Source: Candidatus Rokuibacteriota bacterium
Lineage (GTDB): Bacteria; Methylomirabilota; Methylomirabilia; Rokubacteriales; CSP1-6
Assembly (NCBI GenBank): GCA_003220345.1
Contig: QHSC01000099.1
Span: forward strand, 1,601-65,600
Direction: 5' to 3'
DNA: 64,000 bases
The notes under the pieces are model-generated. The model was given only the letters and a program-made list of their open reading frames with translations. It did not search any database and was not told where the DNA came from. Positions 5,847-58,046 of the stretch are shown one piece after another. The position numbers and the translations under genes are program-made. The first letter of the stretch is position 1, and each line of letters opens with the position of its first letter.

Positions 5847-6076
5847 GGTCGTCGAGGAATCCCCGCAAGAGCCGGGCCAAGACCCAAGGCCCCAGAAACC
5901 GGTCCTTTCTCGACCCTCTCGACGCCCCGTCTGACGAATTCCGTCCTTCATGTGACACGCCTCGGCTGATTGTGGAGTCCTTCCCGATGAGGCAATATTT
6001 TGGGCTGCCATTTCGCTGACTTACAAGAATGCGTACTTGGCACGCGACTGGAAAGGAGGAGGGTCCCTCAAGAATC

Positions 6077-6889
6077 ATGAGACACCTGACGAAGCTCCTA
6101 CTCGGACTGGTGGTGCTACTGCAGCCATGGACCGCCGCCGCTCAGCAGCCACCCCTGGCGTTCGGCGTGCTGAACCAGCAGAGTCCGGCGCTCACCGCGG
6201 AGCGCTGGAACCCGATCCTCCACTACACGAGCACGGTGAGCGGCGTCCCGCTCCAGCTCAAGATGGGCCGCACGGTGCAGGAAACCAACTCAATGATGGC
6301 CCGCGGCGAATTCGACTTCGTGTTCACCAACCACAATTTTCAATCGGAGTTCGACAGCCTCGGCTTCAAGGTGATCGCCCGCTGGGCGGGAGAGCCGATC
6401 CGGGCGGTCATCGCGGTACCCGCGGACAGCCCGATCCAGAACCTGCATCAGCTGGCAGGCAAGCGCGTGTCTTTCCCTTCCAACGAGGCCTTCGTCGCCT
6501 ACGCTGTCCCGCTGGTCGCGCTCAAGCGGGCGGGCGTTCGCGTGGAGGAGGTCTTCGGTGGCAACCAGGAAGGCACGCTGGCGCAGCTCAAGGCCAGGCG
6601 CGTCGAGGCGGGCGCGGTCAACTCCCGCTTCCTCGGCCAGTACGCGGAGCGCGAGCACGTGCAGTTCCGCGAGATCTACGTGTCCGAGGGCTTCCCCGAC
6701 CTGGCGGTGATCGCGCACCCGCGCGTGCCCGCCGCCACCGTGGAGCGCGTGCGCCGCGCCCTGCTCGGAATGAGCAGCGACACCGCGGCGGCCTCCATCC
6801 TCACCCTCGCCAAGTCCAAGGGGTTCGAGGCGGCCACCGACCGTGACTACGACGGCGTCCGGCGCATCTACCGTCTCGTCGGCCAGTGA
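6077..6889 (+). CDS. PhnD-like (phosphonate-type) periplasmic substrate-binding protein
   Basis: Signal peptide MRHLTKLLLGLVVLLQPWTAAA from ATG 6077 (alternative ATG at 6029). PhnD/ABC type 3 binding-fold similarity. Its stop overlaps the kinase start (GTGA). Confidence 0.75.
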   Translation: MRHLTKLLLGLVVLLQPWTAAAQQPPLAFGVLNQQSPALTAERWNPILHYTSTVSGVPLQLKMGRTVQETNSMMARGEFDFVFTNHNFQSEFDSLGFKVIARWAGEPIRAVIAVPADSPIQNLHQLAGKRVSFPSNEAFVAYAVPLVALKRAGVRVEEVFGGNQEGTLAQLKARRVEAGAVNSRFLGQYAEREHVQFREIYVSEGFPDLAVIAHPRVPAATVERVRRALLGMSSDTAAASILTLAKSKGFEAATDRDYDGVRRIYRLVGQ

Positions 6890-9273
6890 AATCAAGCCTT
6901 CGCGCGCTCCTGCTGGGCGTCTCGAGCGTGGCGATCGTCGCCGTCACGCTGGGCGGCCTCGCCGTCAACCTGAGCGATCGCAGCACGGCAGCCCGGATGA
7001 GGCTCAGCGAGCAAACGGAGCGCCTCGGAACGGCGGCGGCTCCTCTGCTCCTCGACGCGCTCGTGGTCGGCGACCTGGCGCGCGCCGAGCAGATGCTGCG
7101 AAGCCTGAACGGAGAATCGGTGTGGAGCCGGCTGGCCCTGTACGAAAGCGACGGGCGCCGGCTCATCCTCGATGCCTCTCCCGACAACCTGAAACAATCC
7201 GGGGCTCCGCGCTGGGTCAAGCACCTGGTTCCCGTGACGCTCGAGGAGCACCGGGTCGCGATCGCGGCGCCGCCCGTCGTCTACGGCGTGCTCGCGGTGA
7301 CTCCGTCCGTGCAGAGCCTGGAAAGCGACCTCTGGGCCGAGATTCGCACCATGATCGCGGTCACCGGCGTGCTCCTGGTGACCCTCCTCGGCCTCACCCA
7401 CGTGATCCTGCTCGTCGGCCTGCGGCCGGTGCGCGCCCTCGCCGAGAGCGCGGCTCGGCTCGGCAGCGGAGACCTCACCGCCCGGATGCGGGAGACCAGG
7501 CTCAGCGAGATGGCCCCCACCGTGCGCGCCTTCAACTCGATGGCGGCCAGCCTCGAGCAGGCGCTCCACGAGGCCCGCACCCGTGAGGCCCGGCTGGAAA
7601 GCCTCGTCGCGATCAGCGGCGACCTGTCCCGGATGCAGGAGCTCGACTCCCTCATCGGGCGCATCGCGGAGGCGTGCGGGCGGCTCGTCAACACCGACTG
7701 GGTGGGCTTCCGCCTCGTGGAGGGCGACGAGCTGGCCATGGCCGGAACACTGGAGAGCAGTGACTTGATGGTGACGCCGAGTCTCAAGATCGGCAGTGGC
7801 CTGGCCGGCACCGTGGCCGCCTCCGGACGTCCGCTCCTGGTGCGGGATCCCGCCGACGATCCCCGCATGCTCCCCGAGGACGCGAAGGAGGTGCGTCGCT
7901 TCGGCGCCCGTGGGTTCCTGGGGGTACCCGCCAAGATCGGAGACCGGGTGGTCGGCGTCCTCACCTTCCAGACCAAGCGCGAGGAGGGATTCTCAGCCGA
8001 GGACATGGCCATCGCCACCGCCTTCGCCTCCCACGCGGCGATCGCGGTCGAGAACCGCCGATTGCTGCTCGAGTCCCGCCGCGCCTACGACGAGCTGGCC
8101 GAGACCCAGGGTCAGCTCGAGCAGGTTCAGAAGATGGATGCCATCGGCCGGCTCGCGGGCGGCGTCGCCCACGACTTCAACAACCTCCTCACCGTCATCC
8201 TCGGGCGCGCCGACATCCTGCTGCGCCAGCTGAAGCCCGAGGATTCCATGCACCGCGGCATCGAGCTGATCCAGCGCACCGCCGGCCGCGCCGCGGACCT
8301 GACGCGCCAGCTCCTCGCCTTCGGGCGCAAGCAAGTGCTCGAGCCAGTCGTCCTCGACCTGAGCGCGGTGACCATGGACATGAAGGACATGCTGGGGCGG
8401 CTGATCGGCGAGGACATCGCGCTCCTGACCACGCCGACCCCGGGGCTCGGCCGCGTGAAGGCCGACCGCGGGCAGATCGAGCAGGTGATCATGAACCTGT
8501 CCGTCAACGCGCGCGACGCCATGCCCCAGGGCGGCCGCCTCATCCTCGAGACCGCGAACGTGGAGCTCGACGACGAGTACGTGCGCCGGCACGTCGGGGC
8601 GCGGCCCGGGCCTCATGTCATGCTCGCCGTCTCCGATACCGGCACCGGGATCCCGCGCGAGATCCAGGCGCATATCTTCGAGCCGTTCTTCACGACCAAA
8701 GAGCAGGGCAAGGGCACCGGACTCGGCCTGGCCACTGTCTACGGCATCGTCAAGCAGAGCGGCGGGCATGTCGAGGTGGACAGCGAGCCGGACAAGGGCA
8801 CGACGTTCCGGATCTACCTGCCCCAGCTCGACGCCGCGGCCATCACCGTTGATCGAAGCCCGCGGCCGACCGCGGCCGCAGGCGGCAGCGAGACCATCCT
8901 GCTCGTGGAGGACGAGGAGGGCGTGCGCGAGCTGGCGCGCGACATCCTCCGGGCCAGCGGGTACACCGTGCTCGAGGCGCGCAACGGCCCCGAGGCCCTG
9001 CTGCTCTGCGAGCGGCACCAGGGCCCGCTCGATCTCCTCCTCACGGACGTGGTCATGCCCCGGATGAGCGGCCGCGAGCTGGCCGAGCGCCTGGGCCCGC
9101 TCCGGCCCGACCTCAGCGTGCTCTACATGTCGGGTTACACCGACGACGCGGTCATCCGCCACGGCGTGCTCGGCGCGGGCACCGCGTTCCTGCAGAAGCC
9201 CTTCGCGCCCGCCGCCCTCGTCCAGCGCGTCCGCGAATCGCTCGATCTCGCGAGCGCGCGCAGCCCCGCGTAA
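6886..9273 (+). CDS. Hybrid sensor histidine kinase (periplasmic/TM - HAMP - GAF - HisKA - HATPase - REC)
   Basis: H-box AHDFNNLL, N-box [11 protein letters not shown]-boxes DTGTGI and GTGLGLA, and a C-terminal receiver ([11 protein letters not shown]...[10 protein letters not shown]). Confidence 0.9.
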
Positions 9274-34191: not shown

Positions 34192-35133
34192 GTGCCAAGC
34201 CTGCCTGAGGTCGATCGCCTGTCCATCACCACGGTGGTGGACAACTTCATCGACAACCTGCGCGCGGACGAGAAGGTGGCGAAGCGCTTCACCCACGCCC
34301 AGGCCCGCCGCATGCCCACCCTCAAGGCCGAGCACGGCCTGGGCCACTGGGTCGAGGTGGAGCGTGGCGGGGAGCGGGGGCGCATCGCCTTCGACTTCGG
34401 GCTCACCGCCGAGAGCTACAACCACAACTTCCTGGAGCTGGGGCTCGAGGCGGGCAAGGTCGACGCGGTCGCCTTGAGTCACGGCCACATGGACCACTAC
34501 GGCGGGCTGGGCGGGTTCCTCAAGACCTACCGCCGGCGGATGAAGCGCGACGTCGTCTTCTACGGCGGCAGCGACCACTTCCTGCCGCGCTACAACGAGC
34601 GGAACAGCCAGCGCGTCTACGTCGGCCGACTCGATCGCGACGAGCTGGAGCGCTACGACCTCGACGTGCGGGTGGTCGAGAAGCCCACCGTGCTGCCCGA
34701 GGGCGTCCTCCTAAGTGGCGAGATGCACGAGACGGCGCCCTTCGAGATCATTCCCCCCTCGCTCAAGGTCGAGCGCGATGGCGAAGTGGTCCAGGACACC
34801 TTCATCGGCGAGCAGACGCTCGTCGCCAATGTCAGGAACCGCGGCCTCGTCGTCGTCACCTCGTGCTCCCACCGCGGCATCGTCGGCATCTGCCGCCATG
34901 CTGTCAAGGTCACCGGCGTCTCGAAGGTGCACGCCGTCATGGGCGGTTTCCACCTCTCGGGGCTGGCGGGCGAGCGCATCACCCAGGTCGTGGACGCTTT
35001 CCGCGGCCTCGACCTGGACTACCTGATCCCGCAGCACTGCACCGGGCTCGAAGCCGTCATCCAGATGGCTGTGCATCTGCCGAAGGAGCTGGTGGTAAGC
35101 TCGGTGGGAAGCACGTTCACTTTCGGTGCCTGA
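34192..35133 (+). CDS. MBL-fold metallo-hydrolase (COG1237-like)
   Basis: 313 aa with the HxHxDH motif as LSHGHMDHYGG. GTG start 3 nt after the ACAD stop. Confidence 0.8.
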   Translation: MPSLPEVDRLSITTVVDNFIDNLRADEKVAKRFTHAQARRMPTLKAEHGLGHWVEVERGGERGRIAFDFGLTAESYNHNFLELGLEAGKVDAVALSHGHMDHYGGLGGFLKTYRRRMKRDVVFYGGSDHFLPRYNERNSQRVYVGRLDRDELERYDLDVRVVEKPTVLPEGVLLSGEMHETAPFEIIPPSLKVERDGEVVQDTFIGEQTLVANVRNRGLVVVTSCSHRGIVGICRHAVKVTGVSKVHAVMGGFHLSGLAGERITQVVDAFRGLDLDYLIPQHCTGLEAVIQMAVHLPKELVVSSVGSTFTFGA

Positions 35134-57220: not shown

Positions 57221-57646
57221 CTACTCGCCGGCGCCCTCGGTCTTCTGCCGCTCGAGGACACGGGCGGTGGCCCGTCCCTTGTCGGGGTGGGGATCCTTGA
57301 CGACACCGTAGGCGGCGCGTCCTTCATGGTCCTCGGGCAGATGCTCGGTGATCGGCCGGCCGTCGGGCGCCACGAAGAGCAGGCAGTGGCAGTACTTCCA
57401 CTTCTGCATCTCGTCGCAGGCGCAGATCCAGCGGCGGAGCTTGGCTTCCGCCTGGGGGTCGGGATAGAAGTTGCACGGGCAGAGGGGCCGTCCGACCTGC
57501 TCGATGTGACGCGCGAGGCCTTCCACCACCGTCTCGGTGACGCCCACGTCGGGATGGAGGGAAGTGCCGGACTTCTCCGCGTACTTCCGCGCGTAGCTCC
57601 ACATCTTGTCGATGTTGGCCTGCGACGGCTTGGCCGGCTCGCTCAT
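57221..57646 (-). CDS. Ferredoxin:thioredoxin reductase catalytic-subunit-like protein (FTRc/FDR-like)
   Basis: ATG 57646. CPC-x16-CAC-x8-CHC (CPCNFYPDPQAEAKLRRWICACDEMQKWKYCHC) matches the FTR catalytic-subunit spacing CPC-x16-CPC-x8-CHC with all six Cys. Confidence 0.8.
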   Translation of the reverse strand: MSEPAKPSQANIDKMWSYARKYAEKSGTSLHPDVGVTETVVEGLARHIEQVGRPLCPCNFYPDPQAEAKLRRWICACDEMQKWKYCHCLLFVAPDGRPITEHLPEDHEGRAAYGVVKDPHPDKGRATARVLERQKTEGAGE

Positions 57647-57882
57647 GACTGGGCCTGGGCCAGCGCTTCGTCGATCTTGGCTGGGTTGAACCCGGCGAGC
57701 CGCGTCTCGCCGATGATGATGACGGGGAGCGAGGTCATGCCGATCGCCATCAGCTCCTCCCGGGCCTGGGGGTCTCGCCCCACGTTCTTCTCCACGAACG
57801 GCACCCCTTTTTGCGACAGATACTCTGTCGCGCGATGACAGGGGCCTCAGCCGATGTTCGTGTAGACGGTGACGTTTACCAT
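57643..57882 (-). CDS. Glutaredoxin-like protein, YruB/NrdH type, with in-frame TGA at codon 12 (candidate selenocysteine, U-G-P-C)
   Basis: Hand translation: MVNVTVYTNIG[TGA]GPCHRATEYLSQKGVPFVEKNVGRDPQAREELMAIGMTSLPVIIIGETRLAGFNPAKIDEALAQAQS. AGGAGG/GAGGA before ATG 57882. Stop overlaps the FTRc start (ATGA). Confidence 0.6.
57803..57846 (-). promoter_or_regulatory. Candidate bacterial SECIS-like nested hairpin immediately 3' of the in-frame UGA
   Basis: mRNA is UGAGGCCCCUGUCAUCGCGCGACAGAGUAUCUGUCGCAAAAAGGGGUGCC. Outer stem GCCCCU/AGGGGU. Inner 7-bp stem GCGACAG/CUGUCGC with apical loop AGUAU, about 23 nt after the UGA. Confidence 0.35.
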
Positions 57883-58046
57883 GTGGTCCTCGCCCTCCTG
57901 GCCAGGTCTCTCGCTCTTGGGATGCGGGAGCCGCCCCCGCCGATTCGGGGAAGCGGTCCATCCCAGAGTCCCCTGGGGCGCGGCCGTCGTCAAGCCCAGT
58001 CCGCCTGCGTTGACAATCCGCGAGCGCCGTGCGACAGATCGCTCTC

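Follow-up and report, generated by a model that had tools for sequence, protein, structure and literature searches.

Does the UGA triplet inside a short glutaredoxin-like gene of a Candidatus Rokuibacteriota bacterium end translation, or is it decoded as selenocysteine (Sec)? This question is raised by a 64,000-nucleotide stretch of contig QHSC01000099.1 (assembly GCA_003220345.1), the whole of which is called the window below. On its minus strand lies an 80-codon redoxin frame, in which a single TGA occupies the first position of the redox motif (U-G-P-C). The comparison of homologues, RNA folding and structural modeling indicate that this is a genuine, unannotated and predicted selenoprotein gene of the glutaredoxin/NrdH fold. 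It would encode a thiol-disulfide oxidoreductase whose N-terminal active-site nucleophile is Sec, and whose thioredoxin-like GPC is placed on a scaffold of glutaredoxin (Grx) size. We consider it very probable that the explanation holds as a whole, namely a 79-residue Sec-containing redoxin, decoding directed by a bacterial selenocysteine insertion sequence (bSECIS), and re-reduction by an enzyme resembling ferredoxin:thioredoxin reductase (FTR). A candidate selenoprotein had been proposed here in a preliminary description of the DNA; that proposal is supported, and a SECIS-type hairpin that it did not contain is added to the evidence. The elements of the gene are as follows.

57643 to 57882, minus strand: coding sequence (CDS) of the predicted Sec-type glutaredoxin/NrdH-like redoxin, 79 aa plus stop, MVNVTVYTNIG-U-GPCHRA..., assigned from its frame, PF00462, conservation in 28 Rokubacteria species and a model of the Cys form.
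57847 to 57849, minus strand: in-frame UGA, codon 12, the first (nucleophilic) position of U-G-P-C, predicted to be read as Sec from TGA in 36/36 stop-bearing loci plus 5 more and from the alignment with the clostridial glutaredoxin cGrx1.
57887 to 57899, minus strand: Shine-Dalgarno (SD)-like AGGAGG (57899..57894) and GAGGA (57891..57887), 5' of the redoxin ATG; a GGAG-rich SD-like sequence stands at the same place in orthologous loci.

Reading the minus strand reproduced the gene as it had first been described, including the frame, the SD sequences, the translation and the overlap with the following gene. The frame opens at ATG 57882..57880 and closes at TGA 57645..57643, with TGA 57849..57847 as its sole in-frame interruption, and it translates as MVNVTVYTNIG-stop-GPCHRATEYLSQKGVPFVEKNVGRDPQAREELMAIGMTSLPVIIIGETRLAGFNPAKIDEALAQAQS-stop. 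Its terminal TGA shares bases with the ATG (57646..57644) of a 141-aa gene, so that the ATGA overlap is real. As had also been pointed out, the TGA at codon 12 splits the gene in a mechanical list of open reading frames (ORFs), which holds only a GTG-started 53-aa piece (57643..57804, where GTG is codon 27) and a 48-aa upstream piece ending at the TGA. The remark that no Met follows until far past the TGA is correct for Met itself, the first being codon 45, and does not hold for starts as they are called, which lie at GTG codon 27 in the ORF list and at codon 22 or 27 in public gene calls (P0005, 58 aa; P0007, 53 aa). Ordinary stops in the window are most often TGA, which ends 26 of the 44 long coding-like ORFs. 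The standard genetic code is therefore in use with TGA as a normal stop, and global reassignment of TGA (code 4/25) was ruled out on the same count. A scan of the window found only one other TGA with same-frame coding-like sequence on both sides, at 35131-35133 on the plus strand; it appears to be an ordinary stop, and the next gene (MKLPKR...) opens three codons later in the same frame.

The TGA was followed across homologues in a scan using one genome per GTDB species, which returned 56 loci. The best 28 of these (69–95% identity) were all metagenome-assembled genomes (MAGs) of Candidatus Rokubacteria/Methylomirabilota. The protein fragment of the window itself was found on two Rokubacteria contigs at NCBI, and assemblies GCA_003220385.1 and GCA_003221475.1 contain the gene. 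Each of the 28 carries TGA at the codon-12 column, never TAA or TAG. Each also keeps the ATG and the SD-like sequence, followed by x-x-x-[VI]-T-[VI]-Y-T-N-[VI]-G, the stop, and GPCHRA[TV]EYLS... on to the C-terminus; in none was a genuine stop found behind unconserved upstream codons. Eight distant homologues also have TGA at this column, six from Chloroflexota (T-stop-[PG]-Y-C) and two from Vicinamibacterales (S-stop-Q-[SA]-C), which makes 36 of the 36 stop-bearing loci in the scan. The same was observed for five further metagenome loci belonging to two more divergent clades. A Cys codon (TGT/TGC) occupies the column in 20 other homologues, mostly as CPYC. The TGA thus stands, as had been proposed, at the first-Cys column of CxxC, which is the Sec position of UxxC proteins; this was evident from the Cys homologues as well as from the cGrx1 alignment described below. 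Such recurrence of TGA at one aligned column is, by this comparison, far more than chance.

Both sides of the TGA behave as coding sequence. Among 29 sequences, V/I exchanges are the sole protein-level changes in codons 5-11, while synonymous variation is present (ACC/ACG at codons 5 and 8). More broadly, the ATG and codons 4-11 are kept with mainly synonymous (ACC/ACG, TAC/TAT) or V/I changes, and downstream residues are conserved throughout. From these substitution patterns, the 11 codons upstream of the TGA are judged to be under purifying selection, and both halves of the gene under coding selection.

One close orthologue was found to carry Cys (GGC-TGC-GGG), on a forest-soil contig (L062:57-299); the explanation is a Sec-to-Cys switch of very recent date or else a differing base call. 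Public protein entries reflect the same picture. Among the 120 best public-protein matches listed, 114 are 46–62-aa fragments that cover only the region past the TGA. Four full-length entries (P0002, P0003, P0006, and P0008) read G-W-GPC, apparently because TGA was rendered as Trp by an alternative code setting, which gives a spurious Trp in the database. One entry, P0004, is a genuine CGPC form. Another, P0001 (139 aa, 85% identical), reads G-S-GPC, in which Ser takes the Sec column, and is much extended at its N-terminus; this SGPC protein was not traceable to a contig.

Past the TGA, the messenger can form a hairpin located at the following position.

57813 to 57831, minus strand: bSECIS-type hairpin GCGACAGA-GUA-UCUGUCGC with an 8-bp stem and a 3-nt loop beginning G-U, identified from folding, codon constraint and covariation.

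The stem begins 16 nt past the UGA, and the gap from UGA to loop is 23 nt. A 36-nt segment gave a minimum free energy (MFE) of −14.3 kcal/mol (z −4.3), and 0 of 200 shuffles were equally stable; MFE values across Rokubacteria range from −12.6 to −16.4 kcal/mol. The bacterial SECIS consensus consists of an apical loop of 3–9 nt on an upper stem of 4–16 bp, a G at loop position 1 or 2 that is usually followed by G or U, a UGA-to-apical-loop distance of 16–37 nt, and an MFE of −7.5 kcal/mol or lower (PMC13188914). The window hairpin agrees with this consensus in all four respects (3 nt/8 bp, G-U-A, 23 nt, and −14.3 kcal/mol). Every Rokubacteria sequence has the loop G-U-A, and the remaining TGA forms have G-U-A, G-U-U or A-G-U-U-C.

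The nucleotides of this hairpin are constrained in themselves. Within the 29 sequences, the stem-loop codons 18-23 (GCG ACA GAG TAT CTG TCG) show zero synonymous diversity except for one compensatory pair, while variation in the five flanking codons on each side amounts to 0.5–1.3 bits. The hairpin fixes codons that this 69%-GC genome seldom uses: TAT is used in 29/29 at codon 21 against TAC in 27/29 at codon 7, and ACA in 28/28 at hairpin codon 19, the other Thr codons being ACC/ACG. Compensation was observed in L028 and L062, where a C-G pair is replaced by U-A (ACA to GUA on one strand and CUG to CUA, which is synonymous, on the other), and in the L063-L067 clades, where AUG is paired with CUA. 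The Chloroflexota and Vicinamibacterales TGA forms pair GUGAAAGA/UCUUUCAC. When 37 TGA-bearing sequences were aligned on the hairpin, 99% of the cells were paired, with compensatory changes in 2 of the 8 pairs, one of which appears as three pair types; controls with a slid 3' partner gave 18–54% pairing and no covariation. Distant Cys forms have no hairpin (0 to −5 kcal/mol). The hairpin hence fits the bacterial SECIS consensus, and its conservation points to a constraint at the RNA level beyond the need of the protein.

The family of the protein was examined with U replaced by C. It matched the Pfam Glutaredoxin domain PF00462 over residues 4-59 (5.5e-14; 52.6 bits against a gathering cutoff of 22.9), so that the glutaredoxin part of the YruB/NrdH/glutaredoxin assignment in the preliminary description holds, whereas YruB and NrdH scored under their curated cutoffs. 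The best NCBIfam model was YruB TIGR02196 at 77.5 bits (cutoff 88.55), and the NrdH models gave 56.1 against 85.75 (TIGR02194) and 46.5 against 131 (NF007657). Uxx-star NF041212 scored 42.5 against 66, and NF041211, NF041114 and NF047338 scored 20–27 against 72–100. Membership in YruB, NrdH or Uxx-star was rejected for scores under every one of those cutoffs. By its profile scores, the redoxin is a relative of the YruB family and not a certified member. No NCBIfam selenoprotein model captures it, the top one being Uxx_star, a family whose Sec lies elsewhere.

P0004, the natural Cys form, was modeled with AlphaFold2 (mean predicted local distance difference test score, pLDDT, of 80); the model shows the beta-alpha-beta-alpha-beta-beta-alpha topology of glutaredoxins, with C-G-P-C where helix 1 begins. 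A Foldseek search with this model gave the NrdH-redoxins 4HS1, 1H75 and 4FIW and the glutaredoxin cGrx1 (7C10) as top matches, with template modeling (TM) scores of 0.8–0.9. A sequence search of the PDB was led by cGrx1 7C10 (E 4e-13, ~40% identity), together with NrdH 1H75/4HS1. Codon 12 of the redoxin aligns with the first Cys of CPHC in the cGrx1 structure, i.e., the Sec/Cys13 position. In Clostridium oremlandii, cGrx1 is natively a selenoprotein; its active site is U-P-H-C, of which the first residue is the catalytic Sec (PMC7642778). According to this alignment, the window gene is a homologue of an experimentally studied Sec-glutaredoxin, with its predicted Sec in the same place.

Other selenoprotein genes of the lineage were sought by scanning for TGA inside coding-like frames, which detected two known families in Rokubacteria contigs.

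L010, 7122-7925, with TGA at 7374: AhpD-like CxYU gene (PF02627, TIGR00778); its TGA stands at 7424 in L015, 7437 in L020 and 7637 in L023.
L028, 7680-8201, with TGA at 7959 at the U of UGSC: UGSC-family gene (NF041046, 136.8 against an equivalog cutoff of 125; PF24696, 2e-54), ~1.7 kb downstream of the Grx(U) gene.

The former encodes a 267-aa AhpD/CMD-domain protein (PF02627, 5.8e-16; TIGR00778 above cutoff) and follows the FTR-like gene in 23 of the 28 Rokubacteria loci. In 23/23 of these, TGA takes the second position of the C-x-Y-U motif, i.e., the Sec site. It is followed by a nucleotide-invariant hairpin, CUGCAGC-CGGGAA-GCUGCAG, which has G at the second loop position and lies 20 nt from the UGA. 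Both AhpD-like CxxU and UGSC are catalogued selenoprotein families (PMC9312934, PMC13188914). Their occurrence with TGA at the Sec site lends indirect support to the view that the Rokubacteria lineage probably decodes Sec. For the phylum Methylomirabilota, a MAG in which 63 selenoprotein genes are predicted has been described, as have hydrogenases of the Sec type (PMC13188914, PMC13582414).

The neighbours of the redoxin gene are an FTR-like gene, a lyase and an amine oxidase, and the first of these is a candidate partner.

57221 to 57646, minus strand: FTR-catalytic-like gene, 141 aa, whose ATG overlaps the redoxin stop (ATGA); putative reductase of the Sec-redoxin, proposed from PF02943, 1DJ7/2PVG and adjacency.

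Its product had been named FTR-like in the preliminary description, and indeed it matched FeThRed_B PF02943 (9.9e-23; 80.6 bits, cutoff 22). Residues 11-96 align with the catalytic chain of Synechocystis FTR (1DJ7/2PVG, E ~1e-23), in which all six Cys of the [4Fe-4S]/disulfide site are in register with 1DJ7 as CPC-x16-CAC-x8-CHC, the middle motif being CAC instead of CPC. In 27 of the 28 Rokubacteria species loci, the FTR-like gene lies directly downstream of the redoxin, and the remaining locus (L024) is truncated by the end of its contig; L062-L065 have this neighbour as well. In a divergent clade (L063:2880-4610, also L064 and L065), the order is trxB (TIGR01292, 412 against 343), Grx(U) (TGA 3980 in L063) and the FTR-like gene, so that a canonical NADPH thioredoxin reductase gene stands directly upstream of the Sec-redoxin.

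From these elements, the following mechanism can be proposed. By analogy with the bacterial Sec pathway, SelB with Sec-tRNA(Sec) would bind the hairpin within the CDS and deliver Sec at the UGA 23 nt 5' of the loop. In the protein, the nucleophile would be Sec12 and the resolving residue Cys15, and the oxidised form would be an intramolecular selenenylsulfide (U12-C15). The oxidised redoxin may then be re-reduced by the translationally coupled FTR-like [4Fe-4S]/disulfide enzyme with a low-potential donor, e.g., ferredoxin. This role is suggested for the FTR-like protein because the gene order is conserved and because FTR-thioredoxin and ferredoxin:disulfide reductase (FDR) provide precedents. 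The G-P-C motif, the NrdH-like fold and the trxB of L063-L065 fit a redoxin that is served by dedicated reductases and not by glutathione. The module might even be a selenium-based relay for peroxide or disulfide detoxification acting via the AhpD-like CxYU protein of most species. This peroxide-output part is tentative, since the AhpD-like gene does not occur in the window and the L066/L067 clade has no FTR neighbour. In its widest form, the proposal is that Rokubacteria possess a dedicated selenium thiol-redox relay, leading from a stand-alone Fe-S enzyme of the FTR-catalytic type through a Cys-Sec mixed bond to its physiological substrate, the U-G-P-C redoxin of NrdH-like kind, and, in most species, to the AhpD-like C-x-Y-U selenoprotein, and that the ATGA coupling ties FTR synthesis to Sec insertion and hence to selenium supply. 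We regard this extended relay as possible and somewhat doubtful.

Several observations weigh against the proposed Sec decoding and its redox partners. The genes selA, selB and selD and a tRNA-Sec were not found in the 64-kb window or in ~0.65 Mb of orthologous loci, to which the search with ARAGORN (tRNA-Sec) and tblastn with E. coli SelA, SelB and SelD (NC_000913.3) was confined. Rfam at gathering thresholds gave no match in the window. The hairpin is not exclusive to Sec forms, judging from three Anaerolineae Cys forms that retain a weaker, 7-bp hairpin and from the close Cys orthologue L062, in which the L028-type hairpin is intact; the Cys control separates only distant homologues. The hairpins retained in Cys forms look like the trace of a recent Sec-to-Cys conversion, and a "fossil" SECIS-type element has been discussed for hydrogenases (PMC13582414). 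As for the partners, neither the window nor L001 has the AhpD-like gene, the L066/L067 clade carries the Sec gene without an FTR neighbour, and the coupling between FTR-like protein and redoxin is read from gene order. In the Cys-form loci L034, L037 and L038 (~6040-6080 in L034), GCGAAAG-CGUUC-CUUUCGC or GUGAAAG-AAUUC-CUUUCAC was observed where the TGA relatives have the SECIS-type hairpin, and this may be a fossil or a pre-adapted SECIS.

Three other explanations of the TGA were weighed. The best survivor, though improbable, is that the UGA is read through with another residue, such as Cys delivered via SelB and a non-canonical tRNA-Cys, near-cognate Trp, or some context-dependent recoding, with the hairpin as a stimulator. 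It agrees with the Sec machinery missing from the window and the ~0.65 Mb of loci, as well as with the G-W-GPC sequences of public calls under code 4/25, and Cys recoding of Sec-UGA via SelB (Vargas-Rodriguez et al. 2018) appears in the reference list of PMC13582414. Yet TGA as the commonest window stop leaves no room for global reassignment, and Trp as the nucleophile would abolish the redox chemistry. Moreover, codon 12 falls in the catalytic Cys/Sec column, and for one member of this family Sec has been proven by experiment. The hairpin agrees with the bSECIS consensus of the SelB type, including the G-U that opens its loop, and the same contigs contain two further classical selenoprotein families in which TGA marks the Sec site.

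Less credible still is a locus with two products, a leader peptide of 11 residues that stops at the TGA and a truncated Grx-like protein starting at codon 22 or 27, with the hairpin as a regulatory element or attenuator. ORF finders and public annotations do call products of 50–62 aa, and a GTG is present at codon 27. However, the place of the internal start shifts between clades (some have Met instead of Thr19, others use GTG or another codon), while the residues between the TGA and the internal starts (GPCHRA[TM]EYLS) are nearly invariant. According to the structural model, the truncated form would lose strand beta-1 and the entire redox motif. In addition, the 11 upstream codons match the Grx/NrdH beta-1 strand residue by residue, and the conservation of codons 5-11 with synonymous variation excludes an unrelated leader ORF.

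The third alternative is that the TGA arose by faulty sequencing or assembly, or that a CGPC redoxin gene became a pseudogene by nonsense mutation. Error and pseudogene were both raised in the preliminary description, and this alternative has practically no chance of being correct. The TGA is one base from TGC/TGT, the related contig L062 reads TGC, and to gene callers the locus is a truncated gene. Yet the TGA column is shared by 28 independently assembled Rokubacteria species genomes and 13 further loci; the genomes include long-read MAGs, such as those of L015 (CAWHBD010000001.1, 3.0 Mb) and L023 (CAVUPM010000002.1, 3.3 Mb). These dozens of independent assemblies exclude an error, and the pseudogene is excluded by the kept ATG, SD and 11 upstream codons with their synonymous variation, a stop that is never TAA or TAG, and the conserved SECIS-type hairpin past it.

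The predicted Sec-redoxin was next compared with known systems. The nearest is cGrx1 of C. (Alkaliphilus) oremlandii (PDB 7C10-7C13; PMC7642778; Kim et al. 2011, cited in PMC13188914), which shares PF00462, a length of ~80 aa, a structural match of TM 0.83–0.89, and a Sec that comes first in U-x-x-C and is aligned to the window TGA. Its motif is of the Grx type (U-P-H-C), in contrast to the thioredoxin-type U-G-P-C of the window redoxin. It is described as a reductant of selenoprotein MsrA and discussed as a glutaredoxin, whereas the window redoxin has a conserved FTR-catalytic-like Fe-S neighbour and no MsrA nearby. Finally, the host of cGrx1 is an anaerobic clostridium, and that of the window redoxin belongs to aerobic or microaerobic soil Rokubacteria of another phylum.

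NrdH-redoxins (E. coli 1H75, M. tuberculosis 4HS1, and C. glutamicum 4FIW) have the same Grx-like fold and were the top Foldseek matches. A G-F-x-P segment of the redoxin appears to lie at the place of the SGFRP motif of NrdH. These proteins carry CVQC with Cys where the window redoxin has U-G-P-C with predicted Sec, and no ribonucleotide reductase (RNR) genes are found nearby. NrdH-redoxins as a family are recognised by C-V/M-Q-C and by association with nrdEF/nrdI. They are served by an enzyme of the thioredoxin-reductase type and not by glutathione; the title of 1H75 speaks of a "thioredoxin-like activity profile".

The "Grx" and "Grx-like" UxxC families of marine metagenomes (Sargasso Sea/Global Ocean Sampling; PMC2398784, PMC9312934, PMC13188914) are also related to PF00462, and were predicted by the same logic as here, i.e., from TGA/Cys pairs and a bSECIS; those surveys are marine and have no FTR context.

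FTR (Synechocystis 1DJ7) and FDR (Methanosarcina) resemble the putative partner in the cluster/disulfide motif, given the alignment to the FTR catalytic chain at E 1e-23. A small redoxin of the CxxC type is encoded beside the partner gene, as would be expected of an enzyme-substrate pair from the account of FDR in PMC6262447. Archaeal and bacterial ferredoxin:disulfide reductases reduce atypical thioredoxins (PMC6262447), and those of Methanosarcina act on atypical thioredoxin or NrdH-like proteins. The window system differs in that no variable subunit or rubredoxin extension was identified with the FTR-like protein, and that the presumed substrate would have Sec at the residue forming the mixed bond with FTR. 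By the title of a 2015 study by Wei et al., the Methanosarcina FDR system reportedly supplies class III RNR.

The family is an established one. Catalogues have listed Grx and Grx-like UxxC proteins with Sec since the mid-2000s, and structural and biochemical work exists on one of them. FTR selenoproteins, like the AhpD-like and UGSC ones, are already known. Hence, our understanding of how Sec is encoded and which folds use it is unchanged, and a selenoprotein specialist would not be surprised. What appears to be new is a phylum-wide redoxin family of Rokubacteria outside every NCBIfam selenoprotein model, the U-G-P-C motif on an NrdH-like scaffold, and the conserved pairing of the predicted Sec-redoxin with an FTR-type enzyme, usually together with a second selenoprotein. 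PMC13188914, in its review of selenoprotein operons, does not list a Grx(U)-FTRc-AhpD(U) cluster. With a profile based on the present sequences, the redoxin would be annotated correctly throughout a widespread soil phylum, and a conserved Sec-redoxin would be added to Rokubacteria/Methylomirabilota, a phylum only recently noted as rich in selenoproteins. The location of a Sec-redoxin beside a non-photosynthetic FTR-type enzyme, whose bacterial substrates are largely unknown, offers a concrete and testable enzyme-substrate pair, which in most species forms a three-gene module with the second selenoprotein.

Some minor features of the orthologous loci were also recorded. A TACAAT hexamer occurs just 5' of the SD, ~15–30 nt upstream of the Grx ATG, in many Rokubacteria loci (L010, L018-L021, L023, and L026), which suggests a promoter with a very short leader; the window has no TACAAT at the corresponding position. 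The two Vicinamibacterales (Acidobacteriota) loci (L039:~2082-2273 and L042:~6001-6210) encode S-U-Q-[SA]-C and have the hairpin at the same distance, with a 7-bp stem and an AGUUC loop. The Chloroflexota TGA homologues (L048:3-524, L044, L049, L050, L056, and L033; T-U-P-Y-C) are longer proteins, and their close relatives L034 and L036-L038 have Cys at the codon-12 column. Among the former, L048 is a Grx-PDZ fusion (PF00462, 1.2e-19; PDZ_2, 4.8e-16).

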